This document shows, one piece after another, positions 2,257 through 52,300 of a DNA stretch of 64,000 nucleotides (positions within the stretch are counted from its first letter, which is position 1; the number at the start of each line of letters is the position of its first letter). This DNA comes from Antedon mediterranea (taxonomy: Eukaryota > Animalia > Echinodermata). The translations under genes and the position numbers were made by a program. The DNA is taken from the NCBI RefSeq assembly GCF_964355755.1, contig NC_092679.1, forward strand, positions 20,319,432 to 20,383,431. Reading direction: 5' to 3'. The notes under the pieces are model-generated. The model ran no database searches. It had not been told where the DNA came from and saw only the letters and a program-made list of their open reading frames with translations.

Positions 2257-5200
2257 ATGTTATGTTTACACGAAAATGAGCAGATCGAATTTCAACAATT
2301 GTTAACAAACCTCAGCAAAGACTATTTTGGTACAAAATGCCGTTGGTTAAAAATGCTTCTACATGATGTATATAGTGGAGAGTTAGAAGTTACCACTTCA
2401 GGAATTGACTTATTCAATGAACTTGTTGACATTGGAAAGATTTCAATTACTGATGTGACCCTTTTGTCAGAGGTTACTGAAACCACCGAACAGACATCGG
2501 CAAAAGATCGTATAGCCGAATATAAAAGGACTGTACAATGCAGTGAAACATTAGGAACAAGATTAACACCATATCGGAAGGCACTTTTTGAAGCCCTTAG
2601 GAATGTTGGGCCTAATGATTTACATACGGTTATTGGTTTTTACAATGTTAAATCCCATAAATTTGACAATATATGGGATGTTGTTTTCCACCTTGAGCAA
2701 CAGCAACTCTTAGAAGATACCAAAGAAAAGTGCAAACGGTTTGCAGATCTACTAAACAAAAAGACAGGAAGTACATTACTAGGTAAACACTCTTACTTGA
2801 TTAAAATATATTAATTGAAAGAATTTGTGTAGCCCCTTTCTCTCCTATATGGTCAGGGTAAAAAATATTGCCCAGAGTTAAATTTTCTGACACAAATGGT
2901 AATTTAAATCATCTGTCATATTTTTCCACAGCATCTCTCAAAACGTTGAAGTTAAGGTAAGAAAACGAACTTTAATATAATACTATATGATGTCTTTTCA
3001 GAAAATATGTTTGACATAAACAAATGTTTGTGTAATGTTTGATGGTTAAATCATGGAAGAGTATGATTTCACTCTTCCCTGGTTAAATACGGATGAAATG
3101 CATATGGGAAAACTCATCCAAGCGTGGCATGGGACATAGGTCATCAATCTTGAGTTTAGAAAGCTTACAGGTCCTTAATTACACATTTTCTTCAATAATT
3201 CAAATCTAATCGATACTTTGCAAATTTAGAGATGCAACCACGCATTTACTACTTCAACTAAACTTGGATACACAATCTGAACCAGACCGGACACCAAGCA
3301 TGAATCAAACGTCACTTGAAAACGAAATTGAAACAAATCAACAAAAGCAACGAGTGAACACAGTAAGGATAGTATGAACTGAGTCTTGTATTTAAGGCAT
3401 AGAAAGTCAAAATCATAGTCACTCAATCATTCATTTATTGGGGTTGTTTTATCATGTTTCTTCATCCAAACAATAAATATTATTATTATTATTTATGTTT
3501 TCCTAGATTCCACAATTGTTTGCCGCATGTTTTGTAATCGTAGTAGCGTTGTGTGCCGCCTATTCATTACAACTTGACAAAAGCAAATCATTTTCACAAG
3601 CTGTTATAGAATTTGAAGAAAACCCAGTTGCAGGAACAACAGAGCCAGTAAGTTACCTTTAAACTGTTGTATGCTAATAGACCTACTTGTACAAACGATT
3701 ATAATTAATTTAGCATTGTTTATGGTATACTTATTTCGTGTTTATAATAATATTACAGGTGGTATATGGTCAAGAAATGTCAGGTAAGTGGAAGTATTAT
3801 TCAACCACTGGTGATAAAACACATGAAACATATGCTATCGGTCGAAAGGTTATTACATAAAATTATGATACAAGCTATAATAGGTATCCTAGACGGCTAT
3901 TTCTAAATACGTTTTTGCTTTATGTCAGCCTCTACGAAAACGTCAATATTTTCGAAAAGATGAAAATGAAAAAATATAGGTCGAAATATTTAATATTTTT
4001 TTTAGTTTGATTAATATTATTGTAATATATAACATTATAAGAATTTAATTTAAATTGTATTTATATCTGACAATTGAATGTACGATTTTTGTTTTATTTC
4101 TAGGTCCTTCACAGTCAAACATGTTCGAAACATTTATCTGTGGTAATGGAACTAATATAACATTGCCTGCATATCCACAATACTTTAAATGCAACCAGTA
4201 CATTAACTGGACATTCACTACTTACACTGGAAGTTTGCTCTCTGTAAAATTATACGATTTCTATCTAGAGGGTCGCTTTGATTATGTTAATATTTACAGT
4301 GACGGAAACATTATTGGCAAGTTTACTGGGTACGATCGGTTCCTAGTTAACCCCGCAGCAAGTCTCCCATCAGACCTGATCATATCTAGTAATAACAAAA
4401 TAGCGATTTATTCCAAAGGATTTAAGGCCGAGGTATCTGTATACCCTGAAGCCCCAGGTAGGTATAGAGTCATGGAATTATATTTGTTTAGAGTGCACAA
4501 CGTCAACAAGGTTTCCAAAAACTGACATCCGACCGCCGGTGTCACAGATATTTTGTTCCGTTCCGTACCCTCAAACCGTCATCATCTACAGTAGTATCGT
4601 GATCTTAGATATCTAATTCTTAAAGAATAATTCGAACGAAGGCCTACATCTCTTGTGGTTTTAAATCCATATCTAAAAACCTTTATTTTATCTTAAGTGA
4701 AAGTAACAGGTAACATTAAGTGTGTACCAATAACAGACCAACAAAATATAAATGAAAGATATGTTAAAATCTTAACTTTTGAAAGATAAGAATATACAAG
4801 AGTATTTTATAAAGATACGTTTGTGCGTATGTGGGAGAATGTGTCACTTATTAATGCTTTAATATCTGCATGAACTTTTTTTAAAAATTCTCTAGCGGGT
4901 TTTTGTTGTAACTTTAAGCATGGAATGTTGCCTTCTGGCTGGACGCATGATCGTAACGCCAATTGGGAGATATCCTATAAAAGGTATTATAAAAAAAGAA
5001 ACAATGACAATGTCGATCTAGGAAGCCGTTACTCAAGATCAGGTAAATAATTTTTTATTCATATATTGAAAATCAATTCAATCAGTGACGACTCGTAAAC
5101 TGAACATACGTAAATATGTAGGCCTAATATAATTGTTTTGAGATGTTGAAAATACCTACTTTATAATTTCAGATGATTATTACATTTCTGTTGCAATAAA

Positions 5201-5606
5201 TTACGGTGACAGTGGAACCAGAAAAGAGGGTTATATTAATAGTCCAAACATACCAAGCAGATGGGATGAAGCATGTCTTAGATTTTATTACTATATTAGT
5301 GACGGAAATCCAGATCTACGAATTACTGTAGATTATTTTAAGCACCCTTATAATGCAAAGAACGTGTTCAGCGAACATGTTAGTTACAGTCAAAGATGGA
5401 AATCTGCAAGTGTTAATATCAGCATGGAGAAATCAGTTCTCCATGCTATCAGCAATGTCGGTTTAAACTGGGAAGAGTTCCTCCCTTATTTAAATACGTC
5501 CTACTTGATTATTGGTGGAGTAGCATCTGGTGACGATACAGCGATAGTTGCTATTGATGATATTTATCTTAGTGAGGGTGCTTGCCTTGATCATACAGCT
5601 CAGTAA
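2257..5606 (+). CDS. Unit 1: tandem DED - linker - TM - CUB - MAM type II membrane protein (~594 aa from ATG 2257)
   Basis: Phase-consistent exons 2257-2782 (DED-DED), 2932-2956, 3230-3362, 3507-3647 (hydrophobic LFAACFVIVVALCAAY), 3759-3783, 4104-4457 (CUB: YPQYF.CNQ...W...DFYLE..FDYV.IY...GKFTG...GF.A), 4896-5042 and 5173-5606 (MAM: C.F...GW...W, L/INSP, C.F.Y, VAIDDI..S.G.C). Total 1785 nt, no internal stops. The start is uncertain because the DED-exon acceptor is mutated (tttacac at 2265-2271). Confidence 0.75.
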
Positions 5607-7430: not shown

Positions 7431-8809
7431 TAAATCATATAAGCTTAGGAAATTAGAAATTAAAGTACCATCCTAAAACAAACTCTATATGATCTAGATA
7501 TCTGAGATGACATATATCCTGCTTCAAATAAGCTTCGACTAGGTTTTAGTCTATCTTTTAAACCGACGACAGTAAAAGTAGGCCTATAAATTATATTGTG
7601 CGTCTACGGATAGAATAATGTTTAGCTCAAAATGAAAAGTTTGGATGGGTATTCTAATTATAACTTTTGTATCTGCTAACCATTTAAATATTGTATCATT
7701 GCTTATTCTCTGACTATTAGTCAAGGAGCCCATGGAGATTTGTTGAGCACTACGACCATACCAACACCTCGACCTTTTGTTAGGAGTAGACGCTCAATTG
7801 TTAAGCTATCCGTTGGTACCATTTTGAAATACATAATACTGTAGTAGTGTGGCTTTACCAGCATCTACTTGTTTTTGGATGGTGACACCTGTTGTACAAT
7901 GTTGTCACAATTTTACAAATGCAGCACAGTGGATAAACATGTGAACAGCGAAATGAGAATGTTACAATTCTGTGGTTCGTCAAAATAGAGAATGCTGATT
8001 GAACCAATAAATTGAGTACTTGACTATAAGGTAGACGTGTTAATGTTTATATTTCACTTCGTGAGCATTCTTGTGTGACATGTTTTGAGACTTCTTTCCT
8101 GTCTTCCAGCAGATATAATAATAGATCTAAAAAAAGATCAAAGACATTATTCCTAATCCGGTCCATTACAAACAAAAATATCAAGACCAAAATCAAATAT
8201 CTACAGTGTATGATTACCAACTAATTCGTTACTAAAAATAAAATAGAATTCCATGGGCATGGAGGGTACGTCACTTGTAAACCGTAGTAGCGTACAGTAT
8301 GTCCCGAGCATTGTATCAGTAAAGCACTATCGTTCCAACTAAATAATAATTGTATCTAGACGTAATGTCCCCGGAACCACCGGTACGTGGCGCTGTACAC
8401 GACTAAAGCTTTAACGGGTAATGCATCCTCTCACCACCAGAATCCTTCATCAACAACAGTCATCCTCCAAGCACAGGAGGAACATAACACAAAATTATGT
8501 GCAACATCAAAGCAGTACACCAGTACATTGTAATCCCTTCACCATGCCTTTTAATATTTTTGAATTTTTTATTGATACAGTTTTTATAATTTACAGGATA
8601 TAGATGGATGTAAATAGTATCACATTTAAGAAGTTTCTGACAATACTCAGCGTAGCTTTACAGAAAAGATGAATATCAGAAAAAAATGAATATTTATGCA
8701 AACCATTTCCATACGCTTATATCATTCAAGTTTCAATACATCTTTGCGTACGATTGGTGACGTGAAATAATGTTCAAGCATCCTTGCAAACAAAATACGT
8801 TTAAGTGAA

Positions 8810-11800
8810 ATGGCAAGATATGATGACAATATCATGTTTAGTACCTTGAAATCTAATTTCAGTAAATGTTATGATTTTCAATCAAACTACAAATGGTTGA
8901 GATTCTGTTTATTTGACTATCTACCTATAGGTGACCTCACTTCAAAATCAACAAGTCAGTTACTAAATTGTCTTGACAATATAGGGGTTATTGCACCTGA
9001 TGATGTTCATCTATTATCAGAAATTGCTGAGCTTTCACGTTTGAAAAAAGCAAAAGTCATTGTAAATGAGTATATGAAGGGAAGTGGTCAAAAAAAGTCG
9101 GAAAGAAAATTGTCGGAATACAGGAAACAACTGTTTGAGGCATCACGAAACGTCGACGAAAAAGATGAGTTAAGTAGAATTATTTCTCACTATGGTTTGA
9201 GTGATGACGAATTCTCAACTATTTGGGATGTTGTATTTTATCTGGAGAAACAAAAACTTTTACAAGATAGGCCAGACGAAATATCGAGGTTTTCAGATTG
9301 TCTTAATCAAACCGCAAAGAATTATCTACTTGGAATTTGTATGTATTTTTCTTTGTTTTTTTAACAAGTATTCTAATACGTTAAAGTTAATTTCTAGATT
9401 AACGGTATAAACTAAAATTAGGCCTATGTATTGTGTTGAAAAACTAGATGTGTACTGTAAAGTTATATCTATGTTTTATTAAAGCCACTGAAGTACAGTT
9501 TTCTTTAAGAGAACGAACAACTGAAGATTCTGACGAACATAAACTGATTTTATCTACCTGTAATGACAAAGGAGAAATAATTGCATATTACCTCTATTTT
9601 CGTGGTTGCATTAAAGAGGTAACGATCACAGAAGGATCTATAGTATTCCATGTAACTTTAGTTGATCCCAGTGCCCTTGAAAAACTATGGAAGCTTCATC
9701 AAAGTGGGCAGCTTCTGAAAGATATAGCAGAAATACTTTTTACAGAGAAACGTCGAAAAGAGTTTGAACAGACTTGGGAGACACAGTTTGACCATCAAAT
9801 ATACAACGATGCTCTTAATAAGTTAAACGGAAAAGGTGAGGAATAAGTTAATTTATACCTGGATAATCTAAAAAAGGGATAAATTTACCAGGCCATAGAG
9901 GCCAAACTCCTGAAATGCTTTATGTAGGTATTATTGTATCCGTGATTACCGTTAGCCCATTATTAATTACCTAATTGGCATAAATTCAACTGCTATTTGA
10001 AAATGTTTACCTTAATTACACCAAACAATCTAGTAGCTTGTAATAAACAATGACACATTTGATTTGTTGTTTACACCACCACCACCATATAAAATATGGT
10101 TATCTCTTGAGACCATTAGCTATTATATTTTAAATAAGATTGTATCTAAATTGATATTTTAGAATTTAGCACATTTGTCAGATGTCACGAATTAATTTTG
10201 ATCTTATATATATATATATATATATCTCCTCTTGCTTCTTTTCTCGATCCAGAACAAAGACCAAATGTGGTGCAGAAACTAAAAACAGTTGTTCGTCGTA
10301 GAGCCAGGAAAAACGAGAATACAGTAAGGATAGTATGAACTTTTCTTGTACTGTAGACTTCACGAAGCTAAATCTTACAGTCCAAAGTGAAACAATTTCT
10401 AATGAATAATTATTGTTTCTTAATAACGTATTAATAGGTGTAAAACAATAATGATTCTTGTCTATTATTTTTCTGCACATGTTTATATTGTAGACTTTCA
10501 ATTATATTATAGTTATGTTTTTTCTATAACTGGTAAAGTATGGCAGAGGCAGCTGCGTACAACTTTCTAAAACCTAAGCTTGAAGATGGGTGCTGTGGTA
10601 TTTACAACTATATATTTTACGCGTACATTTATTACCGTGACACACTGTGCATCTGTATTATATTTCTCATATTGATATAAATACTTATTGATAACTTTTA
10701 TATTGACAGGATAAAGATCAAATCAAATGTCAACAGTTTCTATCAGACCTCAGCAAAGACTATGGTGGTGTAAAGTATCTTTGGTTAAGAATGCTATTAC
10801 ATAATAGTATACCCATTCAATGTTTAGAAGATAGCAAAACAGGACTTGAGTTATTCAATGAACTTGTTAAACTTGGAAAGATTTCAAATACTGATGTCAC
10901 CCTCTTGTCCGAGGTTGCTGAAACCACCGAACAGACATCGGCAAAAAAGCGTATAGCCAAATATAAGAAGAAAATACAATGCAGTGAAACAGGAACAAGA
11001 TTAACACCATATCGAAAGGCACTTTTTGAAGCCCTCAGGAATGTTGGGCGTGATGGTTTACATGATGTTATCAATTTCTACAAACTGATAGATCGTAACT
11101 ATGACAACATATGGGATGTTGTTTTCCACCTTGAGCAACAGGAACTTTTAGATGATACCCAGGAAAAGTGCAAACTGTTTGCAGATTTACTAAACAAGAA
11201 AGCACAAAATATTTTACTAAGTAAGTCAGACTTAATCTTATTTGATCAAATGTAATTATACTACTGTACTCTAGTACATTTTTAGTTTCAAATTGGATAA
11301 TTTTCCAATGAGTGTAAAAAATATTCGTTGCCATTGTTTGAAAACATGCCTCTACAGAGTTGAACTTGGTGAAATATTTAATTCGATTCTTTAACATTCT
11401 CGTATGGAAAACGGATAACTCGACCTTGTCTTTTTTTTTCACAGATGCTGTCAATAATAGGTAAGAAAATGGCTAAAAATAACGTTTAAAAAAAAGAATC
11501 AGGTTGGGATTGCCTTATCCAAGTATGACTTGTTGCGTTAAGAATATATACAGTAGCTTGGTTATAGTCCTAAATTATTAAAAATATGACTAAACTTTCT
11601 TAATTTAGAGAAGCAGTACCTCTTCAGAAGAGAATAATTCAGAAAATGAAAAGCAAACAAATATTTACAGTAAGGATATTATAAACTAAGTTTAAGTCTT
11701 ATATACTTGTTGTTTTCATCTTTTAACTGTTTTTTCGACCATAATTATATAATGGACACTGCCATAATATGTGAATAACCCTACCGCTGTTTATATCGCA

Positions 11801-13387
11801 GGTCCTATACAATGTCTTTGAGTTAGTTTATATGTTATATACAGTAGATGACATGAGTAAATATCTTTATTTATATATTTATATTATTTTTTTTAGGTTT
11901 AACTCATTGATTCGTGTTTGTGACTTTTGGATAAGCTTGAACAAAGTTCTAAACCATAATAATTAATTTTGTCTTATATCTGTTTTCTAGCCTAACAACT
12001 GGTATTGGATACCTGCACTGTTATTGGTTGCTTTTGCAATACTACATCACTTATCAGGGCATATGAAGGAAAATAATCGTAAGCAAATCCTTAAAATATC
12101 CCAGTTCTTTAATCTTAAATCTCTAAATTATAAGTTTGCGCAGTTGTGATTTGTTTTTGTGTGGTAGGCCTACTAGAGAGGAAGATGATTTGACTGAAGC
12201 TTTACAAATATTCGTAAAATATTGTTATTAATAGGGAGGTTTCGCAACCTTACGAATACGATAACGAAAACGGATACGTCATACATTTGTGAAACTTTTG
12301 AGCTGATCCCCATTTCATATTCGTAAAGCGTATTCGTGTTGTTTGACGAACATCACCAGTCATATTCGTAACTACAAAACGAGTATAGTTTTTTTTATCT
12401 ATTTTGCACATTTTGCATTTGAATCAGGAATGATTCATGATTCATGATTATAATATAATTATAGATTTATTGAAAGTAATTTACTAAAGTAATTTACTAA
12501 AAAGACAAGTCAATTTTGATAAATAGCAGTTTTTAAAGTCCTCACTGGCTTTGATGTTACGCTAGGCCTAGGCAGCCAAGCACCAAGCAACACGTACCTG
12601 CGCTTCGCTCAAATTTACCGCAGTCATATTTTGGACGCGCCTCAATATTTCGTTGCCATGCGAAACAGATTTTTTTATGGCTTACGAAAACGAATACGTG
12701 TGCTTGACGTATCCGTTTTCGTTATCGTATTCGTAAGATTGCGAAACCTCTCTATTATTCTTTTGTTTGTATTTAGATTGTATTCATAATGATTTCAACC
12801 ACAACAAATTTCCGTGTGCTAATTGGACACATCATGGTGCCAAAAAATGGATGTTAGGAAATGAAAGATATAATGTCGGCTACGATTTAGGAAAAAATTA
12901 CTCAGGAGGATCAGGTAAAATGATGTCATACATTGTAAATCAGAAAATTCATACAATTTTTGCTTACCAATAACGACAAATGAATTGATCCTTTAATTAA
13001 CTGATGATGTATGAAATGGTGTCATGTAAGTCCTACTTTATATTTGCAGGTAACTATTACATTTATGTTGCAAAAAGTGATGAAGAATCCATAAAAGAAG
13101 GCTGGCTTAACAGTCCAAAAATACCAGACGAATGGGACAATGTGTGTATTGCATTTGATTTTTACAATAGTAACAATGATTCACGAATTAAGTTATATCG
13201 TATTACTAATGACAAAGACAAGGAAGTCATCCAAATTCCTTATAACAAAGGGGAATGGAAGCGTCTTTCTATCGATAAGCCTGTTAATACCAATACTTAT
13301 CACTATCTGATTGGCGGATTAGCATCTGGTGACGGTCAACAACTAGTTGTTCTTGACAATATTTTGATTAGTAAGGGCAAATGCTAA
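8810..13387 (+). CDS. Unit 2: divergent DED-DED - TRADD-N-like domain - DED-DED - TM - MAM (~730 aa)
   Basis: Phase-consistent exons 8810-9338 (divergent DED pair), 9485-9835 (TEGSIVFHV...ALEKLWKLHQSGQL, TRADD-N-like), 10163-10323, 10710-11220 (DED pair), 11445-11460, 11609-11669, 11991-12078 (WYWIPALLLVAFAIL TM), 12777-12914 and 13050-13387 (MAM). Total 2193 nt, open throughout. Confidence 0.72.
12233..12753. mobile_element. MITE / non-autonomous DNA transposon in a unit 2 intron
   Basis: ~48-bp terminal inverted repeats (agggaggtttcgcaaccttacgaatacgataacgaaaacggatacgtc / gacgtatccgttttcgttatcgtattcgtaagattgcgaaacctctct). Flanked by AT on both sides. No ORF. Confidence 0.85.
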
Positions 13388-14089: not shown

Positions 14090-14300
14090 TTCCTACGTTA
14101 CTCACAAGTAGGCTCTCTCTCTCTCGCACCAGCAGTTAGAATCAAAATCATTCATAGCAAATTGTATTTTTATACTTTGGGAATTTTCTTTTGTCAGTAA
14201 AACGTATTGAAATTAATTCATCATGCATATCAACAGTGGTATGTAAACATAATTTTGTTTAAAATGGTGGCCAAGGCTAAATACAATATATCAGCACGGT
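14090..14300 (+). promoter_or_regulatory. Promoter block / non-coding first exon of unit 3
   Basis: Homologous to 6655-6860 and 22590-22765. kB-like GGGAATTTTC at 14179-14188. Donor agcACG|gtaagt at 14298, where unit 5 has agcATG|gtaagt. Confidence 0.5.
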
Positions 14301-15092
14301 AAGTGTGTACAGCGTATTTTTTACAAATTATTCCAGCAGCAAAATAATACCATCTGTACAACTAATATTGAATCTGATATTTCATTATCCTCTTTATCGA
14401 GTGATGTTACTATAGGCATGTTTATTTCAGTGTAAAATTATATTGCGTATTCGTATTCATATAGGCCTACATAGGATTGAAATGGTGTGTTTCAATGTGA
14501 TTCTGAACAGTAAGATATTTTAGCCACATAAAAAACCTATATTATTTTAAAATTCAGGAACAGTAACCGTTGACAACTCGTGTTCCTAGACATAACTCGA
14601 TAATCTCCACACGTACAGAGGGTCTACAAACTGTAGAACATTATAATGTTAATACAGGATTCATGTCTGTAATTTCAATAATGATTACGAGCATAGCAAC
14701 TTCTTATGCAGAATAATGCATGCCATACGCACATCGTTTTTTTCTTATTGATGAATTATTTATTTACAGGATAATTATTAAATTTAAGCAGTTTTTAACC
14801 GTTCTCTGGAAAGCTCAAGTTTACCGCAATTATTAAATATCCCTTGTACCATCCTAGAGGGTGTGAGCGCACCTTCAAGTACTTTTGAATTTGTTGTCGA
14901 TTTGCAGTTACGTAAAATAATTATGTTTGATATGGTCGTCTTAGTTATCGATCTAGATATCTAGGATACCACTACGGCTCCATTTTATTTTATTCTTTTG
15001 TATTTCCAGTTTGTATTGAAAACAATCCATGCATTTAATTCGTGGTATTGATTACGCGTTTGTATACAATATAGTCAAATCAGGGGCACTAA

Positions 15093-18040
15093 ATGGATAA
15101 CTTGAAAATATTTAAACAAGAAGATATCGAGATCAAGCAGCAGTTGGGAGGTGATTATAAGTTCAATGTGTTTTTAGGAATTGTGAAAAAAACTGGCAAT
15201 TTAGTAGCAGTGAAAAATATCAAAGTTGACAAACGGGAGTTGGATATATTGAAAGAGCTACGGCACGCAAATGTTATCCGACTGTTAGGAACTATTGACC
15301 GTGACACGTCAACAGGGTTAGTGCTTGAATACGCACCCAAAGGAAGCCTATATGATTTCTTAAATATTAGGCCTATAAATCACTATGACTATTTAGATTG
15401 GTGTAAACAGGCCGTACGCTCGGTCGTGTATATCCACGATCGAGCCGTATCGCATAGAGATATAAAATCTAAGAATTTTTTAGTTTTTGGAGATAATATC
15501 AAGCTAATTGATTTCGGATTGTCAAATGATGTCACTTCAACTACCTCGAATAGTGGATGCGGTACATTTATCTGGATGTCTCCTGAAGTAATGAATGGAT
15601 CACAAGGGGTTGATCATTTCAAATCAGATGTATACTCTTTAGGAATAGTCTTATGGGAATTGTATCACCAGAGAAGGCCCTATGAGGATCTGAATGTGCC
15701 AAATATCATTCAACACGTGGTTAATTATGGTCATCCAGAAATTGATGCTGAATGTGACGTACGGTTACGTGATGTAATGCTAAAATGCTGGAATTACCAA
15801 CCAGATCAACGACCACACGCGGAGCAGATTCTGACGTCACTCGATAACGGAACTGAAACATTTGTCAGAAGTCGTTCCAAGAAAAAAAAGAAACAAATAT
15901 CAGGCATACATAAAGTAAGCATGTCATGACTTTTTCTTTTCGACAAAAACGTACTGTAACAACTGAGCATGCAGATTTTAATATATTTGATAGCGTTCTG
16001 ATTTTGATATTGACCTGTTCTTTTAATGGTATTATATGCCTATCTTTTTTATCGATAAATTTTACATTATTTTCAGGACAATCATATCGAATTTAGAAAG
16101 ATCAACCAACCAGATCAACGGCCACATCCGGAGCAGATTCTGACGTCACTCGATAACGAAACAGAAACATTTGTCAGAAGTGGTTCCAGGGAAAAACAGA
16201 AACAAATATTAGGCATACATAAAGTAAGAATATAACAACTGAGCATGCACATTGTAATATATTTGATATTCTATTTTTAAATTGACCTGTTCTTTTAATG
16301 GTATTATATGCCTATCTTTTTTATCGATACATTTTACATTATTTTCAGGATACTCATATCGAATTTAGAAAGCTTCTATCAGATCTCAGCAAAGACTATG
16401 TCGGTTTAAAGTACCGTTGGTTAAGAATGCTTCTACATGGTATTATACCTATTGGATGTTTAGAAGTTAGCACTATAGGACTTCAATTATTCAATGAACT
16501 TGTTGAACTTGGAAAAATTTCAAAAACTGATGTAAGCCTTTTGTCAGAGGTTGCTGAAACCACTGAACAGACATCGGCAAAAGATCGTATAGTCGATTAT
16601 AAAAGGACTATACAATGCAGTGAAACATTAGGAACCAGTTTAACATCATATCGAAAGGCACTTTTCGAAGCCCTCAGGAATGTTGGGCTTGATGATTTAC
16701 TTAAGGTTATTGGTTTTTATAAACTTAAAGACTATGGCTTTAACAATATATGGGATGTTGTTTTTTACCTTGAGAAAGAGAAACTCTTAGACGATACACA
16801 GGACAAGCTAAAACTATTTGCAGATCTCCTGAACGAAATGGCACGAAGTATTTTACTAGGTAAATTAGACTAGAGAAGATTAAGAGGATCTCGGACAGTA
16901 TACTGTTAATCTTTTCTAAATTGGGAGTATCATTATCATTGGTCTAGAAAGTTAGTTATAAGTGCATTGATTTCTCAATGGATAGCATACCCTTACCATA
17001 GATTATTATGAACAACTATTGCCTGAGCATATTTAAACTTGGGGAAAGGTTTCATTAGAGTTTTAATCTTAAAATGTATTTATGAAATTGTAGAACACGT
17101 TAAATGTTTCCATTTATTCCTTTCAGCAGCCGCTCCCAAGACTCTGGAAAGAAGGTGAGAATAATGACTTCACCAAAAGTAATCTTAATGAATTACCTCT
17201 GAAAAATAAATATAATTGTCCAGCAATGACGTAATGGTCAAATTGTTTGTATATTATATGTAGTTAATGTATTTATGCTTACACCATGATGCTGGAATTG
17301 GATTAAATTAATTAAATTGACAATTCTCATCCCTTTGTCCGAAAAGTAGTCCCATTAAAAAATATTTGAAACGCTTTTAGCATCAGTCCATATTTATTTA
17401 ATGCGATAATACTGTCCAAATATAGAGAGAAAACCAATTCTTCACCACACGTCAATGCTCCTTTGGATTGGCAAAAAGAAGGACTCAGACGAATAAAGGA
17501 AAATGATCTTAAGAGAAATTATTCTGGGACGGTAGGCTGTCTATCTATTAAGTATAACTGAATTTTTGAAATAGAAAGGAGTAGTTATTGGACCTTGTTC
17601 TGAACCCCTGACATTATATTCCAATTTGACACTAATAAATAAACATTTCTGTCGTCTCACATGACACTGGTTTTGTGAAGACGCGTTGGCCTCCAAAACG
17701 ATAGTTTAATAATGTCCGTGTTTTCATTGTAGCTTAATTATGTATTTTTAATTGGCCTGGTATTTTATTGTAGGTCTGTTCATAACGATCTTTGTTCCAA
17801 CGTTAGAAAAAGAAGATAAATAACTTGTTATTTATTTTAACATTACAGGTGAGAGTATATGATCGAGAATTCAAGTTTGATGGTGGCCATGAATGGTGGA
17901 AGTTTTTTTCAACAGCTACCGATATTGCAACTGGGATTAAAGCGAAAGCTGGGGGTTACAAATCAATGGGCGGGGCAAATGAACATGCTATCGAAAACCT
18001 CATTTATAAACTAATGGCGCAGGGTATCATAAGAAATTAG
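15093..18040 (+). CDS. Unit 3: TKL-group Ser/Thr kinase - DED-DED - ALF-like domain, no TM (552 aa; 601 aa with optional exon)
   Basis: Exons 15093-15914 (VAVK, ELDIL, HRDIKSKN, DFG, GTFIWMSPE, KSDVYSLG..LWEL, CW...RP; MLK/ZAK-like TKL), optional 16077-16223, 16349-16859 (DED pair), 17127-17154, 17426-17531 and 17849-18040. Phases 0/0/1/2/0 all match. 1659 nt without the optional exon. Confidence 0.8.
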
Positions 18041-19184
18041 AACTTAATCAAACATCAATTGATGTAAATAATATAGTCTTATTCTATATATTCTATAAAT
18101 GTAAGTATTTGATTGATTGATCACTTTATTTCAGAATACGTATTCCATAGGCCTATATACAAAACGGAAACTATTGCAATTTCGATTCCTAACAGTTGTT
18201 GTATACCATTTTCACATATTAACTGGAATATAACAGTTTTGAAACATTGTACATTGATTAATTTGTTTTTTACAATTAAATGTTTAATCTTTCTACATAA
18301 CAAAAAAAAAACATAATAAAGTATAACAGGGGAGTCGCGGAAAAGCAAAAGTAATATCTTGTGATGTGCTTGATCAGCCCCTGTCAACAGGACGATACAA
18401 TAAAACCGAAAAATATAGAAAAATACATTGAAAAATATGCTATAATAAAATGTTAATAAAAGTCTTCTAAAAATACATTTGCTATCTGAACATTCTGATT
18501 TTATAAAAGTTAAAAGTTATCTATTCTTTCCATAAACCTAGGATGTTGATAAATCGCGTAGATCAGTGAGTCCATTTTATCCATGATAGTCAATAACATC
18601 AAACACACGTTCACCTTAAATCTTAGTCTCAACTGACTTCAAATGGGTGCTTGATCTCACCTTATATTGTATACAAACGTCTACAATACGTATGTCCCCC
18701 AACCCCATTCATACGCAACACCACCCATTGATCCTGTTATTTAAAGAGTTTGTAATGTACATATGACGTACGGTCCATAAGTATTTAAATTTTATTTAGT
18801 ATTATTTATTTGGCTTTTAACCTTTGGAACGGTGTCAAATAAACAAAGCAACATAAAATACAACTACATACAATAAAATAAATACAAAGGGAAAACCAAT
18901 CAATCATGTATAATATTTATTTGTTTACCCTGGATTTTTCCCATGATTTTTCCCTGGATTTTTCCCATGATTGCTTCCAACCTCTTGACTTGTGTACGTG
19001 GTTTACTGCACTGTATATTTCCCGTAGTGATAACAATTATAATATCCAAAATGATAGTTTATAATATCAGTTCAAATGGTTTACCACCGCACATGAGTGA
19101 ATGAATGACCCGATGATTTGTAGTCTACTGGAACCATACCAAACCATTCTTCTGGTTGAATAATTAATAAGTTGTATTGTTATA

Positions 19185-19306
19185 CTCCGGAATTCCCCTT
19201 TATATGAATTGTGTACATAGCACACTCAGTGGATTATAGGTAATATCATTGTTGTGTTGTATGACTTCCTCGTAATCATATCGACACGTACACCTTGTAA
19301 AACATG
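19185..19306 (+). promoter_or_regulatory. Promoter/first exon of unit 4 with consensus kB site
   Basis: GGAATTCCCC at 19189-19198 (reverse complement GGGGAATTCC). The block is nearly identical to 7290-7413 and ends in ATG|gtaagt (19304-19306). Confidence 0.55.
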
Positions 19307-22191
19307 GTAAGTACAACGTATTTTGAACAAATTGTAAACACTTTTAGGATTAAGAGAGTGAAAATACCATTTTAAAACAAACTTTATGTAGACCTAATCT
19401 AGATATATGAGATGCCATTTTTATTCTGCTTAGAATAAGCTGTAGGCTTCGAATTAAAGAACCTAGTACATCTTTCGAGACGAGTAGGGGGTTACCCCGG
19501 TGTATTAGTACATCACAGCCACTGATCACCAATTGGGCCCTCTGGGAGACCAGTCTTTGACTGAAGAGGTTACCCAGTATAAATATAAATTTCAATTCAA
19601 TTCAATTCAATAGGCTGTAGGCTTCAAATAGGCTGTAGGCTTCGAGTAGGCTGTTGTCTATCTAGTTATGGACAACAGAAAATTATCAATCATATTTCTT
19701 CTGTGCGCCTACTGTACGGATAGGATGATGTTTAGCTAAAATACAAGTTTGAATGGATATTCAAATTCTGTATCTGCTACACACTTCAACAGTGTATTAC
19801 TATTTATGTTGTAACTATTACGACATTGATATTATTCTATACCTCCTTCAATACGCCAAGTCATGTAGCCGTTTGTTGTTTTGTGAATTGTGTTTTAAAA
19901 TCATTACCGCAACACTTAACAACAATAGGCCTGGTACGTTCGAAATCAAAGTTAATCACATTACTTTGTTCGCCTACTGGAAAACAAGCTTAACACAGAC
20001 ATTTGTCAATATTGCTCGTCGTAAGCTAAGCCATTTTTTAAATGTAAATGTAAATGTAGCCATCTTTTTTCTCATTGATATTTCATTTATTATTTTACAG
20101 GATACAGACCAGATCAAATTTAAGCAGTTTCTAACAGATCTCAGCAAAGACTATGTTGGTTTAAAGTACCGTTGGTTAAGAATGCTTCTACATGGTGTTA
20201 TTCCCATTCAATGTTTGGAAGTTAGCACTACAGGACTTGAACTGTTTAACGAACTGGCTGAACTTGGACAAATTTCAAATACCGATGTTACCCTTTTGTC
20301 TGAGCTTGCTAAAACAACTTCTCAGAAATCGGCAAAACAGCGTATAGCCAAATATAAGAAGAAAATACAATGCAGTGAGACATTAGGAACCAGTTTAACA
20401 CCATATAGGAAAGCACTTTTTGAAGCTCTCAGAAATGCTGGGCCTAACGATTTACTTAAGGTTATTGGTTTCTACTCGCTGAAAGACTATAACTTTGACA
20501 ATATATGGGATGTTGTTTTCCACCTTGAACAACAAGAACTTTTGGATGATACCCAGGAAAAGTTCAAACTGTTCGCAGATCTTCTAAACAAAAAAACAAG
20601 AAGTGTTTTTCTAGGTAAGTCAGACTCACTCTTACTGGAATTATACATTTCTGGTTTTTATTTCATCTCTAAACTTTTTTTTCGATTCTAAATTGAGTGA
20701 GGTGTTAAAGATGTTAACTGTCTCATTAATTATTTTTCCACAGCTGCTCTTAAGACTCTGAAAAGGTAAGAAAATGAAATTTACCAACAATTTATAATTT
20801 TGTTAGTCAGACTAACAAAAAAAAAGTGTAAATGTTTGTGAACTAGATGAAAGGGGTTTGATTTTCAAGATATATAGGCCAATAATTGATACTTGGATTT
20901 AATAAATGCAACATATTTGTTTGCCAATCTCGTTGTCTGAAACCGACACCGAGTCTTCAATTATCTTAAACTATAATAACGGTATAATAAACTTTATAAA
21001 ATTAGAGATGCAACCACAACTTCACCTCAACTACTGGATACACAATCCGAACCAAACCTTCAGCGTTTTCTCAAACTGGACAAAAGACCAAATGTGGCGA
21101 GGTACTTAGCAGGAATACATACAGTAAGGAGAGTATGAACTTTTTAAAATGTATAATAGGCTTAGTGAAGTCAACATTCATTTTTCGTACAATGTTTATA
21201 TTGTTTTATTTTGTACTGAGGTCATTATAAGTCGTGATTGTAAATGACACAATCAGAGTTTCCTCGTCTCAATTACGTTACGCATATTCTAAATTATTAT
21301 TCTTGTATGATATTCATCTGTTTTCTAGACTGTTCGTATATATTGGCCATGGATAGCACTGAGTATATTAATCATGTTCGTCGCCATTCAACTTCCAAAA
21401 TTCAACTTACCATTAACCCCCAAAGCGCCCTCAAGAGATTGGCAAGCGGAAGGGCTCAGACGAATGAGGGAAAATGATCTTAAGAATAATAAACGAGGAA
21501 CGGTAAGACCTTTTTAACTAATTTACAAATATACTATATGAAGTATAATATCTGAATGTTAGGAATTATTATTATTTAAATTCCTTCATTCTGATTAAAT
21601 AATAAGAAGAGATGCGCCTGGTAACTGAGATAGCTGCCCAATTATCTTCGTCATTGCAGTTACAAAACTGAATTGCAAGTATAAAATTCACAATAAAGTG
21701 GGTAAAAAGAGAAAAAAAAAACCAGTAACAATCTATATTTAGAAATTATTTAAACCTCCCAATGATATTAGAATTAATTAAGTAATTTATAAACGGTTAA
21801 TGTGTACCATGGAACACCAGGAATAATAAATAATAAATAACATTTTTTATTGATTATTTAAAATATTATCTGGATACACCCGCATGCGACAAGGCGGCAT
21901 ATAACAATGATTAATGCTGCTAATCTTATATTATTCTTTCTTTATTTTTATTCTGTTTTTTTTTTTGTGAATACATATTTGTTTATTTTAATATCACAGG
22001 TGAAAGTATACGATCGGGAATTCAAGTTTGAAGGTGGCCATGAGTTTTGGAAGTATTACTCGACCGCTACTGATGTTGTAACTGGGACCAAAGCGGAAGC
22101 TAAGGGGTATCAGTCAATGGGTGGGGCCAATGAGCATTCTATTGAAAACCTCATTTATAAGCTCATGGCAAAAAAATCGATTAAAAATTAA
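19304..22191 (+). CDS. Unit 4: DED-DED - linker - TM - ALF-like domain, type II membrane protein (340 aa)
   Basis: Exons 19304-19306 (ATG), 20101-20614, 20744-20765, 21006-21123, 21329-21502 (YWPWIALSILIMFVAI TM then RDWQAEGLRRMRENDLK) and 22000-22191. 1023 nt in frame. AATAAA at 22378. Confidence 0.8.
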
Positions 22192-22760: not shown

Positions 22761-25700
22761 ATGGTAAGTAGGCCTACAGTTTACCAATAGCAAAAAAATA
22801 GCATCTTTACAACTATATTTGAATCTGATATTCCATTATATTCTCGTCTATTTCGAGTGATGTTACTAGGCATATAGTTTATGTTACCATCGACGTGGGC
22901 CTACAATGTAAAATGATATTTCCTCGGTGTAGGCCTACGTCTAAATAAATGGGTGCTATTCAGGGTGGTGCTAGTTGATTCTGAACTAAGATATTTTAGT
23001 CAATGTAAAGTAAGTATGTATTTTAAAAGTCATTCACTAACCGTTCTCTCTAAATTTGTGTTCCAATTACCCACACATAGGTCTACAAATGTACATCGCA
23101 TGATTCATGTCTAATCTGCCAATGCTTATGACTCGTCGTCATATCATAGGAACTTTGCCTAATGTCATATAAGTCAAACATTTTTTTCATATAGATAATT
23201 GTTATATTACAGGATCATATAGATCAGCGATTTTTAACAGACCTAAGTGAAGACTATGTTGGTTTAAAGTATCGTTGGTTAAGAATGCTTCTGCATGGTA
23301 TTATACCCATTGGATGTTTAGAAGTTAGCACTACAGGACTTGAATTATTCAATGAACTTGTTGAACTTGGAAAGATTTCAAAATCTGATGTAACACTTTT
23401 GTCAGAAGTTGCTGAAACCACTGAACAGACATCGGCAAAAGATCGTATAGTCGATTATAAAAGGACTATACAATGCAGTGAAACATTAGGAACCAGTTTA
23501 ACATCATATCGAAAGGCACTTTTTGAAGCCCTCAGGAATGTTGGGCGTGATGATTTACTAAAGGTTATTGGTTTTTATAAACTTAAAGACCATGGCTTTA
23601 ACAATATATGGGATGTTGTTTTCCACCTTGAGAAACAGGAACTCTTAGAAGATACCATGGAAAAGATCAACATTTTTTCAAATCTACTAAACAAAAAGAC
23701 AGGAAGTAAATTACTAGGTAAATCAGACTCTTACTTAATATAATATACATTTCTGTTTATAAATTAGTGTTATTAGTAAAGTAAGTTTTTAGGGAACTTG
23801 GAGAGTTTAAAAAAAATATTAATCATTTTTTTAATGGAAGTTGGTGAGTTTTAGAGTCCAGTAACCATTGCTATATAATAGCTTGCACATAAATACACTT
23901 TGGTGGAAGATGTCATTCGGGTTTGAAACATTTAAAAAAGTTCTCGTATATATTACAGTATCTTCTCTAAAAATGAACAAATATTATGAAAAACACAAGT
24001 TAAATCATTCTTCTGTTTTCCACAGCTGCTGCTTCCAAGACTCTCGCAATTAGGTAAGAATTAATGATTATTAAAACATGGAATTTTATTTATTATTTCG
24101 GTTTTGTAAACTGTCTTCATCCAATCAGGCCTGTATAAGAAAATAAATTACCACTATTATACTGTATTAAAAACGTTAAATATATTGTAAAAACTTCCCA
24201 AATTTAGAGGAGCAACTGCACCTTCACCTCAAGCAGACTTGGATGGACGGCTAGCTTCACAATCAAAATCAAATCCTCTTTTGGCAGCACCTTCCCAGGA
24301 TTTTCAACAAGAAGAGCTCAGACAAAGAGAGGAAAATAATATTACCAAGAAAAGTGATGTCAGTGGAACAGTATGTTTTGTTTAAATTATTAATTAACTA
24401 ATGCAGCCTATATAATATGTATTTGATCGGTTTATCAGTCTTGACATCTAAATAATTTTCAAAAAAAAAACAACACCGCCTTTCTTTTCCTTCAGTCGAT
24501 TCAAAGTTCTCTGACGTTCACAACATTTTAGGCAGTTTTAAAATTGTTTATAATCATGCTTAGACCATAGATCAAACGCATAGCAGAGTTTGACGTCACT
24601 CATACCGAAACTGAAACAATTGTATGGAAAAACAAACAAATTAGGTTGTTATGAATTGTATTAACTTGTACGTAAATATCTAGTCCAAGCGTCAAACAAT
24701 TCTTCATACACAATGTGTAGATTTGTTTTAAACAAGGTGAAATTATTTTGTAATTTTTATAAGGCCTCTTAAGTTACGGTATACGATATCCACTCGACAT
24801 TATAATTAGTTTAATCAGGGAAAAGTTAAATTACATTTAAATCTTCCCTGGTTTAATTGACATGTGTAACATTGGTATTGACTACGAATCAATCTGGTTA
24901 TTTCTTGACCAAATTCCAAGTAATTATTTCTTTCTTCTGTTTCCTAGTCTGTCTACAGATATTGGCCATTGATAGCACTGAGTATTGTGTTGTTGGCGTT
25001 AGTTGCCAATATATACCCTTATAAAGTTGATGAAATACGACTTCCCCTATTCGAACAGGTAACCACGCCTTCACCACAGCCACACTCTGATGGCATAGAA
25101 CCGGTAGCACAACCAGTTACGGAACCAACCACAAAACCAGTTGGAGCAACCACCGAACCTACGAAATTTATATTGCCATTAACCCCTACAGCGCCCTCAA
25201 GAGACTGGTCGGCGGAAGGGCTCCGACGAATGAGGGAAAATGATCTTAAGAAAAATATGCGTGGAACGGTAAGACCTTTTTACTAGTATTAAAAATATAT
25301 AATATGAAGTATTATCTAAATTAACCAAATTCCTTTCATTCTAATCATTATAGTGAAGCGTAGTCGATTTCTTTCCTGGCCTGGTAATGCCAGCCTAGTA
25401 TATTTTTTAATATGTTTTGCCTTTCACTTTATTATCTTCACCATTGCAGTTACAAAACTGAATTGCAAGTATAAATTTACAATAAATTTGTAAAAAGAAG
25501 ATAAAAAAACCAGTAACAACCTATATATAAATTTGACAGATATGAAGAAATTCCTTAAACCGACCAATGATATTAGAATGAATGTTTTAAACGGTTATTG
25601 TGTACAACAGAACACCAGCAAAGATAAATGATAAATAAATTTGTTTATTTCTTATTTACAATATTATCTAGGATACACCTGCATCATGCGAAAAGAAGGT

Positions 25701-48034: not shown

Positions 48035-49070
48035 TGAGAATAGACTAAAGCCAAAACAAGTGAGAATAGACAAAGGCCAAAACAAGTGAGAATAGACAAA
48101 AGCCAAAACAAGTGAGTATAGACTAAAGTCAAAACAAGTGAGAATATACTAAAGCCAAAACAAGGGAGTATAGACTAAAGCCAAAACAAGTGAGAATAGA
48201 CTAAAGTCAAAACAAGTGAGAATAGACAAAGGCCAAAACAAGTGAGAATAGACTAAAGTCAAAACAAGTGAGAATAGACTAAATCCAAAACAAGTGAGTA
48301 TAGACTAAATCCAAAACAAGTGAGTATAGACTAAAGTCAAAACAAGTGAGAATAGACTAAAGCCAAAACAAGTGAGAATAGACTAAATCCAAAACAAGTG
48401 AGAATATACTAAAGCCAAAGCAAGTGAGAATAGACCGTAAAGCCAAAACAAGTGAGAATAGACTAAAGTCAAAACAAGTGAGAAATAGACTAAAGCCAAA
48501 ACAAGTAGGCCTAAGAATAGACTAAAGCCAAAACAAGTGAGAAATAGACTAAAGTCAAAACAAGTGAGAAATAGACTAAAGTCAAAACAAGTGAGAAATA
48601 GACTAAAGTCAAAACAAGTGAGAATAGACCGTAAAGCCAAAACAAGTGAGTATAGACTAAAGTCAAAAACAAGTGAGTATAGACTAAAGTCAAAAACAAG
48701 TGAGAATAGACTAAAGCCAAAACAAGTGAGAATAGACTAAAGTCAAAACAAGTGAGAATAGACTAAAGTCAAAACAAGTGAGTATAGACTAAAGTCAAAA
48801 CAAGTGAGAAATAGACTAAAGTCAAAACAAGTGAGAAATAGACTAAAGTCAAAACAAGTGAGAATAGACTAAAGTCAAAACAAGGGAGTATAGACTAAAG
48901 TCAAAACAAGTGAGAATAGACTAAAGTCAAGACAAGTGAGAAATAGACTAAAGTCAAAACAAGTGAGAATAGACTAAAGTCAAAACAAGTGAGAAATAGA
49001 CTAAAGTCAAAACAAGTGAGAATAGACTTAAGTCAAAACAAGTGAGAAATAGACTAAAGCCAAAACAAGT
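48035..49070. repeat. 26-27 bp minisatellite (gtgagaatagactaaagtcaaaacaa)n, ~39 copies
   Basis: Head-to-tail units without spacers. Variants gcc/gtc/tcc, gaat/gtat/gaaat. Confidence 0.95.
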
Positions 49071-49257
49071 AAGGACAACAGCCCATCTTAAAAATTTCGT
49101 GATAATAAATTTAATGAAATATTTTGAACTAACGAACAATTTGCAAGTCTCGCTACAAAAACTATTTTTTTACCCTTGTCTTTTTTGTTGTTGCCGTGTT
49201 TGTGGTTATCATTGTTTTCTTGTTCGTTCTTTTGGTTGTTGGTTGTTTTTTTTTTTT

Positions 49258-49327
49258 TTTGCCGTTACATTTGTTGCCGTTACATTTGTTGCCGTTATTT
49301 TTGCTGCCGTTACATTTGTTGCCGTTG
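49258..49327. repeat. 15-bp tandem repeat (gccgttacatttgtt)n
   Basis: About 4.5 copies after a poly-T tract. Confidence 0.9.
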
Positions 49328-52300
49328 CTTTTGGTTGGTGACATTTATGTTTTTGGTACTCTTCTAAAATGAAACATTCTTAACAATGGTCATATATTAC
49401 ATAAACGTTTGTAGGACGGATAGCCTACGCAAGAATAAAACCAGATCATATCGAAAATAACCGTTTGTTAATTACTCTTGTTTGGTAAAACACAGGTGGG
49501 GTGATAATTATGGCGAGAACTTGATAGTTTGGTTGAATTCCATTCATTCCACACTCTCCATAATTAGTATTCTCTACGAACCTATCAATTTAACGAATGA
49601 CACATGCAATTACCACGTAACTTATCAGACAAAATAATCACATTGGAAATTAAGTATTTGGCCGTATACGTCCATTACTTTACTAATTGAGGTTTCTACG
49701 AATGAATTGTTTTCGTGATATTTTGAAAAAATTAAGTAAATAACTAAAATTCCGTGACATATTTTTTTTTTCACTTTGTGGGTAACGCTCACTTTTATTA
49801 GCTTATTTGTCTTGTTTTTTCAAATATCTTATCAGTTTTTATTTATCATTGTAGATTTATTATAGGCCTACATTTTATTTATTTTTTATATACAATGGAA
49901 GCAACGTAGCGCATATAACGCATGCGTACGCGCGCTTAAAATTCAAAATTTATTTTCTATGAAATTCGAGTACGTTTCAGCCAATTTAAGCGTTTAAAAA
50001 ATTGCCATGAGTGCGCAGATTTGTGTGCGCACACTGCACGTTAAACATTAATGCACGTGGACATGCGAGTGTGAACAACGTCTCCCAGTCGAGATTCGAA
50101 CCCGGGCGTTTGAATTGGTAATTATGGTCCACTTGTTTATTACATTTTATTTATACTTTGACATAATTTATTAAATGCATGCTAAACATATTTTTTTACA
50201 TTTTCATATCTTGTTATTTGTTCAATATCACCTTATGTAAAAAAAATCTATTCTCGTATATTAGCATATTTAGTCGACTGAACGAATATATAGGCTACTA
50301 AACATTTTGTTTATATTTTCTTGTAGTATTTAATATATTATGTACAAAATTTGCAATGTTTGCAAGTCTTCACATTTGCAAATGTTTTAAAACATTATTA
50401 TCGTATTGTTAGGACATTTATTCATAGACTACTACGAGATAAGTGGCTCAAAATGTATATAGCCGCGTGACTTAGTGAACTTTAGCGAACGAGGAATAAT
50501 TTTTCGCTCATCCAATTCAGTAATTTGTCGCGAGGTTATTCATACCACCTACTAATCCTTGTTACTAATTTTTTTGTTTTTATCTAGCGTAATCATTCCC
50601 AAAATAGCCGGTGTTGAATAAATACATGTGCTAATATTACCTAGGCCTATGAAATTAGGTTGGATGATTCGCTGGAAATACTTTACTGCTTCGACAGTAG
50701 TCGTAATCCGCAATTTGCCATCTATATTTCGAAGCCTATTATATAAAATACTGAGCCTGTTTTTATCGAAGATAAGCACTTATTTTGTCACAATTATAAC
50801 CAAATATAGATGAGGATGAACTTGTTCGTAAGTAGTGTACGGTATTACACGGTATTAGGATGGGTAATTGGAATGAGCGCGTACAGTGTGGTTAGCCAAT
50901 GAGATCCCACTAGATTAGCGGCGATTCAGTAATATACTGTACTGTATAATGTACACAGATTTTGATTATTTTTTCTAAAAATATGTGTCGAAACTGCTAT
51001 TTGTGTAGAGTATTAAAAACATATCTCTAACGGAAGTTTTGATGTTATGATTTTGATCTTTTTCTATTTTTATATAAACTCCTTTAAAAGATTGGGATCA
51101 ATATATATATCAACCAAACAAACTTCTATGTATCTTACTTTCTATGTAATAGCTGCATGTTATCAATGTAAATTATACTTGACCTTGAGTCAAATTTATC
51201 AACCAGACTTAGGCAAATATATTTTGCTTACTAAGTCAGATTGCAAAGTAACCTAAGAAAATATTTTCACGTATTTTTCTTGAATCGTAAGTGACAAAGT
51301 TCTGTAGGATAAAAAGAACTGATTTTGATAAAATAAAGCCTATGTTTTTCACTTAAGCACTTCTGACTTAAGCAAAAAAAAAATTTTCATTTTTTAAAGG
51401 AATGATTCTGGATAAAAATCCAGGTGAAGAGAGAGAAAGCGAGGACTCGGTTAACAACCACAAATAAAGTTTTAAAGAATTGCACAAAATAACTGAAATG
51501 TAATTTATGATAAAGTAGGCCTATAAATTTATGTTCTTAAGGATCTTTCACACGACGAAAAGTCGCGGTAAGCGCAATCTGACGCGCACCTGAACTGGAG
51601 CCGGACTTGACCAGAACAAGTGTAAACGACCCTTAAAGACGCTTAAACCGTCATTTTTGCGCAACCAAAGTGCAATCACTCCCATGTGAATACACCCCTT
51701 CACCTACTTATAACCAAATTGTTTCTCTAATAAGATTTGGATAATATAATTACGTTCAGACATAAGATTGGCTTGAGGGTCCGTGTTAGGACAAGATTGG
51801 GATTGATAACGGTCTTCTGCGCAGGTTTTGAAACCCAAAGCGTGCGCCAGCCAGGTGAAGCCATTGTAGGTGTCAATTAATAATGATTAGATACTTGGCC
51901 GACTCGATTGGTATAACCATAGGAATTACCCTAATTCATGTAGGCTATATGAATGAACTTAAAGCTAGGCTTAAGAATAATATTCTGCACTGCTTATAAT
52001 ATTAATACAATCATGTGTATAACTATTTATAAATTTAAAAAAAAAATTTAAATTGCTGTCAAATGTTTTCGATCTTTTTCTTTAAACAAAAATAACCAAA
52101 CTTTAAAATTCCTTCTTAAAAGATAATATTCTAATATTTAATATTGTAAAACCTATGTTGGTATGTATAGGCCTATATTTCTAATGCCTCTCTGCTTCGT
52201 GCTCGCTTGTCGGTTGTGGTATGTTGATATCATAATAATCAGATACGAAAGAGATGTGTTACATCTTATAAATGTGTATAGTATCACAAAAAGTATGCGT

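Follow-up and report, generated by a model that had tools for sequence, protein, structure and literature searches.

The window analysed here, i.e. the whole 64-kb stretch of DNA, consists of AT-rich animal DNA. Three genes (g1, g2 and g3) were identified on its plus strand, each of which ends in an exon for the strands and last helix of a small domain resembling anti-lipopolysaccharide factors (ALFs), preceded by an exon supplying the first helix. Two paralogues (A and C) with the same DED exon are both located upstream of g1. Joints designated X1 were read from contigs of a run that is RNA by guess only and stems from one study; run X2 is of DNA type. The following features were assigned:

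2281–5606, + strand: paralogous gene A, an open chain of eight exons with the same DED exon, a membrane segment and then CUB (Pfam E 3.9e-05) and MAM (Pfam E 3.1e-10) domains
10710–13387, + strand: paralogous gene C, an open chain of six exons with the same DED exon, a weaker hydrophobic segment (hydropathy 1.84) and then a MAM domain (Pfam E 7.9e-11)
15093–15914, + strand: g1 protein-kinase exon, MAP3K12/DLK-, ZAK- and TAK1-like (Pfam Pkinase E 4.8e-47)
16077–16223, + strand: partially duplicated end of the kinase exon, included as an additional exon in RefSeq model P0002 (blastn self-match 81.6 %, P0002 sequence)
16349–16859, + strand: g1 DED exon, first DED clear, second probable (Pfam DED E 7e-08, two stretches)
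17127–17154, + strand: g1 short linker exon (open exon chain, X1 joints)
17426–17531, + strand: g1 exon for a short linker plus the first ALF-like helix, lacking a membrane segment (exon chain, model, hydropathy, X1 joints)
17849–18040, + strand: g1 terminal exon, which supplies the four ALF-like strands, the C-terminal helix and the stop codon (tblastn, model, structure search, X1 joint)
19304–19306, + strand: g2 start codon, end of the first exon (X1 joint 19305>20100; model identical to P0001)
20101–21123, + strand: g2 DED exon (20101–20614; Pfam DED E 2e-10) and linker exons (20744–20765, 21006–21123), no kinase
21329–21502, + strand: g2 predicted membrane segment (hydropathy 2.18 across 17 residues), then a short stalk and the first ALF-like helix
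22000–22191, + strand: g2 terminal ALF-like exon (tblastn, exon chain, X1 joint)
23213–24370, + strand: g3 DED exon (23213–23717) and linker exons (24026–24053, 24208–24370) (exon chain, X1 joints, protein comparison)
24948–25268, + strand: g3 predicted membrane segment (hydropathy 2.32), Pro/Thr-rich stalk and first helix
25787–25987, + strand: g3 terminal ALF-like exon, hairpin three residues longer (tblastn, hairpin count)

The terminal exons at 17849, 22000 and 25787 each lie behind an AG acceptor in phase 0. With the exon at 17849 as query, tblastn returned copies at 22003 (74 % identity, E 3e-31) and 25790 (66 %, E 2e-25); the preceding helix exon recurs at 21395 and 25203. These terminal exons and the helix encoded ahead of them, already recognized in a preliminary description of this DNA, were confirmed by tblastn, GT-AG chains and X1 contigs, and a six-frame profile search of the window detected exactly three ALF-like copies. 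The last exons of g1, g2 and g3 are under purifying selection, with dN/dS ratios of 0.17, 0.13 and 0.58 for the three pairs. Synonymous distances are distributed as a mosaic: g1 and g3 are close in their DED exons (dS 0.25) and far apart in their last exons (1.16), while the reverse pattern applies to g2 and g3 (0.59 and 0.16, respectively), which indicates exon shuffling or conversion. Gene A ends in CUB plus MAM and gene C in MAM at the place where g1–g3 have the ALF-like domain, and the outer slot is thus interchangeable. CUB and MAM are protein-interaction domains without specificity for microbes.

Contigs of X1 splice g1 at 16857>17125, 17152>17424 and 17530>17848, all with GT..AG ends, and a single contig of 610 bases spans 17424–17530 together with 17848–18132. 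The respective exon chain (16349–16859, 17127–17154, 17426–17531, 17849–18040) has GT-AG ends and an open frame; since the contigs join these exons, the g1 transcript runs from the DED to the ALF-like domain without a membrane exon. Joints in g2 include 21123>21329 and 21501>21999. In g3, use of an inner acceptor at 25059 (X1 joint 24370>25059, GT..AG) drops the membrane segment in frame. Overall, GT..AG introns are skipped in X1 at three or more junctions of g1, at least five of g2 (one without a shifted cut) and at least three of g3, and none of the X1 joints in the three genes is present in X2.

Gene g1 is composed of kinase, DED exon, short linker and ALF-like domain, in this order, and its sole hydrophobic stretch resides inside the DED. 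The frame of the kinase exon (15093–15914) is open; catalytic Lys, HRD and DFG are present, the glycine-rich loop is degenerate, and the best single-domain PDB match is MAP3K12 (E 5.4e-35). The splice from kinase to DED exon belongs to the modelled exon chain and is absent among the X1 joints listed, while a joint at 15860>16350 in the contigs has non-canonical ends and may stem from a paralogue. RefSeq model P0002 includes just the C-terminal part of the kinase, and its C-terminal 100 residues are identical to g1. The Pfam DED score amounts to 33 bits in g1 and 41.2 bits in g2, i.e. below and above the cut-off of 35.9, respectively; a profile built from six DED copies matches the DED of cFLIP (E 7.4e-05, positions 4–91), the second DED being weakly supported. 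As a membrane segment is missing and spliced contigs pass straight to the ALF-like domain, the g1 protein is likely cytosolic.

The products of g2 and g3 are predicted type II membrane proteins with the DEDs inside and the ALF-like domain outside, because they possess no signal peptide, DED or kinase are N-terminal, and basic residues are biased to the N-terminal side of the membrane segment in the related proteins P0005 (5:1) and P0006 (4:1); this bias is weak in g2 (2:2) and g3 (3:2). The preliminary description had regarded the domain as a receptor domain, which agrees with the predicted membrane segment ahead of it in g2 and g3 and does not apply to the copy at 17426–18040. A database search retrieved seven proteins among 349 candidates, five from Antedon mediterranea and two from Anneissia japonica, both crinoids; their annotations read uncharacterized or MAP3K12-like, and none mentions ALF. 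P0001 is identical to the g2 model, P0004 to g3 after its first residue, and P0003 is g3 spliced at 25059. The ALF-like domain occupies residues 352–439 of P0002 and 253–340 of P0001. Complete kinase fusions are P0005 (kinase, DED, membrane segment, ALF-like domain), P0006 (kinase, membrane segment, ALF-like domain) and P0007 (kinase and ALF-like domain with no membrane segment). The crinoid fusion proteins comprise 340–623 residues and are devoid of an N-terminal hydrophobic segment.

The crinoid domain (~85 residues, cysteine-free) is considered to be a remote homologue of ALF with a probability of about 90 %, as judged from its predicted fold and a transitive sequence link. A direct link is lacking at the sequence level. 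The Pfam scan against the ALF (DUF3254) profile, proposed as a check in the preliminary description, returned no match: PF11630 was found in none of the three last exons, six full domains or three full proteins. No Pfam family at all, and no dsrm match either, was obtained for the three exons or six full domains. Likewise, PDB sequence searches with the crinoid domain did not find the ALF structure 2JOB, and a near-length database search with it scored none of 75 candidates.

The transitive link was provided by a profile of the six crinoid domains, which was run against 1.84 billion representative sequences and yielded 45 proteins at E<=1e-3, 4 from crinoids and 41 others. No cysteine-type ALF was returned among 45 hits, and neither the family profiles nor the repeat protein P0008 match 2JOB by sequence. 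Among 40 scanned non-crinoid hits (including P0021; P0024 was left out as too long), PF11630 (Anti-LPS-SCYG) is listed in 19 and its cut-off of 25 bits is passed by 13, 12 of which are repeat proteins with scores summed over their repeats. The remaining one of the 13 is the single-domain protein P0027 (25.5 bits), and two of its five scanned cluster mates pass as well (25.2 and 28.9 bits). Single repeats reach E 3e-7 with the crinoid profile. In the reverse direction, a profile of 38 repeats from the 13 passing proteins recognized all six crinoid domains with 46–56 bits versus at most 10.1 bits for 1,206 shuffled or reversed control sequences; this reverse profile is not fully independent, because its set came from hits of the forward search. 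Alignment of crinoid and family profiles by hhalign gave a probability of 98 % (E 1.4e-13 over 68 columns, with a 4-residue gap). Two of the 45 hits, P0021 and P0024, were dropped as false: what matched were merely short stretches in 10 and 21 repetitions, and no domain of either protein exceeds 15 bits. P0021 is a fibronectin-III protein.

AlphaFold2 modelling on the six-copy crinoid alignment produced one confident model out of five (pLDDT 90.9 versus 39.6–44.7). In this g1 model a helix (5–15) is followed by four strands (23–28, 31–40, 43–50, 56–62) and a second helix (65–82). Structural alignment against 48,161 chains placed 2JOB first (Z 8.5, 82 aligned residues, rmsd 3.1, 13 % identity), ahead of a dsRBD chain (Z 7.2, 68 aligned). 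A Z-score of 8.5 is slightly above the 7–8 usual for unclear matches and gains weight from ALF having been named as target beforehand. Foldseek returned no match at E<=1e-3; 2JOB ranked third by E-value (0.037) after two Staufen dsRBD chains, and had the highest TM-score among the matches listed (0.63, 87 aligned columns). The structural comparison with ALFPm3 suggested in the preliminary description thus turned out in favour of ALF by Z- and TM-score and not by Foldseek E-value. For P0027, modelled from a 26-row alignment including the three window exons, all five runs were confident (pLDDT 73.5–84.8), and 2JOB ranked first both in Foldseek (E 1.7e-4, TM 0.73, rmsd 2.4) and in structural alignment (Z 9.6 versus 7.1 for the next).

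Five of the six crinoid domains are free of cysteine; P0007 has one. For the family, 91 domains (>20 bits and >55 profile positions, from 115 proteins; identical strings merged, close relatives kept) were inspected at the two columns taken to be the cysteine sites, placed by the alignment to horseshoe-crab ALF in the preliminary description and by a spacing of 20 residues. Cysteine never occurs at these columns: the first is occupied by I, L, F or V, the second by Asp in 90 of the 91 domains. The hairpin between the presumed sites measures 20 residues in 66 of 91 domains, whereas five crinoid copies have 16 and g3 has 19. Loss of both disulfide cysteines and shortening of the hairpin, as previously proposed, were therefore borne out (no Cys in the presumed columns, 16 versus 20 residues); 20 residues is the ALF hairpin length given in PMC6213531.

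The charge of the hairpin varies among the crinoid copies. Basic and acidic residues number 2/2 in g1, g2 and P0006, 2/1 in P0005 and 5/0 in P0007, so that the net charge is <=+1 in four of the five printed crinoid hairpins (all but P0007); a 5/0 composition also occurs in three of the five printed repeats of P0008. Four of the six crinoid copies have a hairpin regarded as charge-neutral, and the Antedon hairpins appear to be without a cationic cluster. The whole crinoid domains are basic (pI 8.5–10.0). In shrimp, group D ALFs without the charged residues bind LPS 20-fold less (PMC3701609), and removal of the disulfide can abolish neutralisation by ALF (PMC3701609, PMC10672452). Since these group D ALFs bind LPS less, lipid A binding by the Antedon copies cannot be assumed.

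The cysteine-free form is not peculiar to crinoids. Named hits from other animals are P0017 of amphioxus, with two repeats, and P0025 of the coral Desmophyllum pertusum. The domain is found singly or as tandem repeats, and also in fusions with a GIMAP-type GTPase or a lectin. P0039 combines it with an AIG1/GIMAP GTPase (E 1.1e-20) and a coiled stretch, P0045 with a B-lectin, and P0042 is secreted in appearance and terminates in KDEL; in five repeat proteins an N-terminal hydrophobic anchor precedes four to five repeats. The N-terminus of the P0086 group appears death-fold-like by eye, with no match in Pfam and PDB. The related locus L003 is eukaryotic, as it is interrupted by GT-AG introns (read by eye). 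A pattern scan of prokaryote genomes delivered 41 stretches and no relatives, which, given narrow patterns, is weak evidence of absence. A table in PMC12220480 labels a rotifer gene as PF11630 without comment; automatic ALF assignments outside arthropods therefore exist. The preliminary description had taken the ALF fold to be redeployed in the present genes, a direction that may be wrong, as cysteine-free members are spread widely among eukaryotes.

With respect to function, the architecture suggests that the ALF-like domain probably, albeit with considerable reserve, serves DED/kinase proteins by detecting molecules of the microbial surface. The slot shared with CUB/MAM ectodomains, and relatives in which the domain is fused to kinase plus membrane segment, to a GTPase or to a lectin, were counted in favour of such a sensor tip. 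Lipid A as the specific ligand is a tentative proposal. On binding lipid A or a different anionic polymer of microbes, the protein would cluster, and the clustered DEDs may then nucleate an assembly of the caspase-8/FADD/cFLIP type, or the DLK/ZAK/TAK1-like MAP3K-type kinase may fire. Forms without a membrane segment (g1, the shorter g3 splice product and P0007) could mediate cytosolic sensing or act as regulators that dampen the receptors.

Three other interpretations have to be considered. The domain might be a true ALF homologue that has lost binding of microbial lipids and provides DED proteins with a module for protein binding, oligomerisation or self/non-self adhesion. This is rather unlikely, if a serious competitor: the short, charge-neutral hairpins of Antedon, the protein-interaction domains CUB and MAM in the sister genes A and C, and strong purifying selection (dN/dS 0.13–0.58) in place of rapid change are all in its favour, but the entire domain is still basic (pI 8.5–10.0), the P0007 hairpin retains five basic and no acidic residues, and simulations (PMC10131219) led to a hydrophobic cleft being proposed as lipid A site besides the cationic face. 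That the domain binds double-stranded RNA in the manner of a dsRBD, rendering the kinase-bearing cytosolic forms PKR-like sensors, is improbable. While dsRBDs come first in Foldseek with the crinoid model and occupy nearly every rank below 2JOB (Z <=7.2), their matches span 60–74 residues, as against 82 in the case of 2JOB, at lower TM-scores. The dsrm score of amphioxus P0017 is weak (E 0.027), but none of the crinoid copies matches dsrm, and their second helix starts with S-x-[GD]-G-A-N in all six copies and not with the lysine-rich motif of dsRBDs. The absence of membrane segments from g1 and P0007 would suit an RNA sensor, whereas in g2, g3, P0005 and P0006 the domain is positioned beyond the membrane segment.

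ALF and the family could also have converged on a common alpha-beta fold, in which case the family would be independent or derived from a release-factor (RF-1/PrfH GGQ) domain. The top PDB sequence match of the family profile is indeed PrfH (E 0.046) and not 2JOB, the RF-1 score of P0023 is weak (E 0.06), and identity to 2JOB is only 13 %. However, 13 of the 40 scanned hits pass the cut-off of PF11630 and none that of RF-1, release-factor chains attain Z 5.5–5.6 compared to 8.5 and 9.6 for 2JOB, and the GGQ-like GG-H of the Antedon copies is missing from both Anneissia copies and from P0005, making this origin very improbable.

Given homology to ALF, the occurrence of a cysteine-free, signalling-fused form in crinoids, amphioxus, coral and other eukaryotes would widen the ALF family and alter its likely origin story, and the crinoid proteins would be candidates for endotoxin detection by non-vertebrate animals at the surface as well as in the cytosol. 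A more far-reaching view, which is possible though doubtful, is that ALF, with its disulfide, is the arthropod branch of an ancient lipid A sensor module that was free of cysteine, spanned the eukaryotes and was repeatedly plugged into immune machines. On the same doubtful footing, hosts of the module would be the crinoid DED/kinase receptors of type II along with the cytosolic splice forms of these receptors, as well as, equally tentatively, fusions with GIMAP-type GTPases and death folds and, in microbial eukaryotes, multivalent repeats at the cell surface. If true, the crinoid genes would constitute a new class of endotoxin receptors operating on both sides of the membrane.

Three ALF studies describe ALFs as single-domain, small secreted peptides which are confined to marine chelicerates and crustaceans and depend for their activity on a hairpin closed by a disulfide (PMC3701609, PMC6213531, PMC10672452); cysteine-free or fused ALF domains were not found in the literature, covered mainly by open-access articles and the openings of abstracts, and no earlier description of a DED/kinase protein with an ALF-type tip was found. 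With ALF (Limulus ALF, ALFPm3, 2JOB; PF11630) the crinoid domain has in common the predicted succession of helix, four-stranded sheet with central hairpin, and helix, the transitive sequence link and an overall basic character; its first helix is encoded on an exon of its own, as reported for shrimp genes in PMC6213531. In contrast to ALF, it has no disulfide, its hairpin comprises 16–19 instead of 20 residues, a third helix is absent (the 2JOB match stops at residue 93 of 102), strands and last helix share one exon, and the protein lacks a signal peptide and has DED, kinase and membrane segment as fusion partners of the domain. The crinoid domain falls outside the ALF family as currently defined, which is disulfide-bearing, secreted and single-domain.

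PKR is a fusion of dsRBDs and kinase, and helix 2 of dsRBDs begins with a lysine-rich motif. The crinoid proteins share the kinase fusion with PKR and, in the model, the broad fold class with dsRBDs (Staufen, MLE, DCL4; PF00035; Z 5–7.2 with partial cover), but differ by an extra N-terminal strand that is paired by 2JOB only, by the absence of a dsrm match and of the helix-2 lysines, and by the predicted extracellular placement of the domain in the membrane forms. Caspase-4/11 and GBPs are cytosolic sensors of LPS; reminiscent of them, the domain is linked to a coiled-coil GTPase in the relative P0039. Death receptors and DED proteins (TNFR/FADD, caspase-8, cFLIP) resemble the crinoid proteins in connecting a ligand-binding end with a death-fold assembly module, and the crinoid DED is similar to that of cFLIP (E 7.4e-05). 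Unlike death receptors, the crinoid proteins have a predicted type II topology, carry the DEDs on the receptor itself and in some cases a MAP3K-type kinase, and end in an ALF-type tip.

The tandem genes g1, g2 and g3, each ending in a cysteine-free ALF-like domain, differ at the end of their homologous first exons. In g2 and g3 an ATG closes this exon just before the donor, and ACG stands there in g1, so that the start of g1 would move into its kinase exon. In g3, a membrane form versus a membrane-less form is switched by an alternative acceptor (window 24948-25059). The following features of the window are considered here:

1586-1927: kinase-exon remnant, C-lobe only, about 80 % similar to the g1 kinase and preceding gene A
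8771-9846: divergent death effector domain (DED) gene with a TRADD-like_N exon (Pfam; identity to other DED genes)
14292-14303, 19304-19306 and 22761-22763: homologous first-exon ends of g1, g2 and g3, respectively
18310-18520 and 19454-19600: high-copy repeats (contig depth, loose ends)

Summed contig depth amounts to tens of thousands at 19454-19600 and to hundreds at 18310-18520, with numerous loose ends. Short tandem repeats at 48383-49341 give rise to spurious open frames on both strands.

No N-lobe belonging to the kinase remnant was found across the window. Behind this remnant, the usual acceptor of the DED exon of gene A, the upstream paralogue, reads AC instead of AG.

The DED gene at 8771-9846 shares 39–43 % identity with the other DED genes, marking it as a more divergent member, and its following exon matches Pfam TRADD-like_N over the cut-off (E 2.4e-05). 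This gene possibly encodes a cytosolic adaptor of the same pathway as the other DED genes.

Outside the window, the database relatives P0039 and P0049-P0052 combine an AIG1/GIMAP-type GTPase, a coiled stretch and a C-terminal ALF-like domain without a membrane segment, a layout which makes these fusions candidate cytosolic sensors. At the related repeat-protein locus L001, the otherwise open frame carries an in-frame TGA (409-411) at the position of a glycine in relatives, representing either a sequencing error or a variant.

Searched against PDB, the ALF-like family alignment (A3) showed a likeness to the release-factor PrfH domain (E 0.046) in the pattern of third strand, fourth strand and helix. 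Structurally, dsRBDs resemble this family pattern, and ALF may form part of a wider dsRBD-like fold group.
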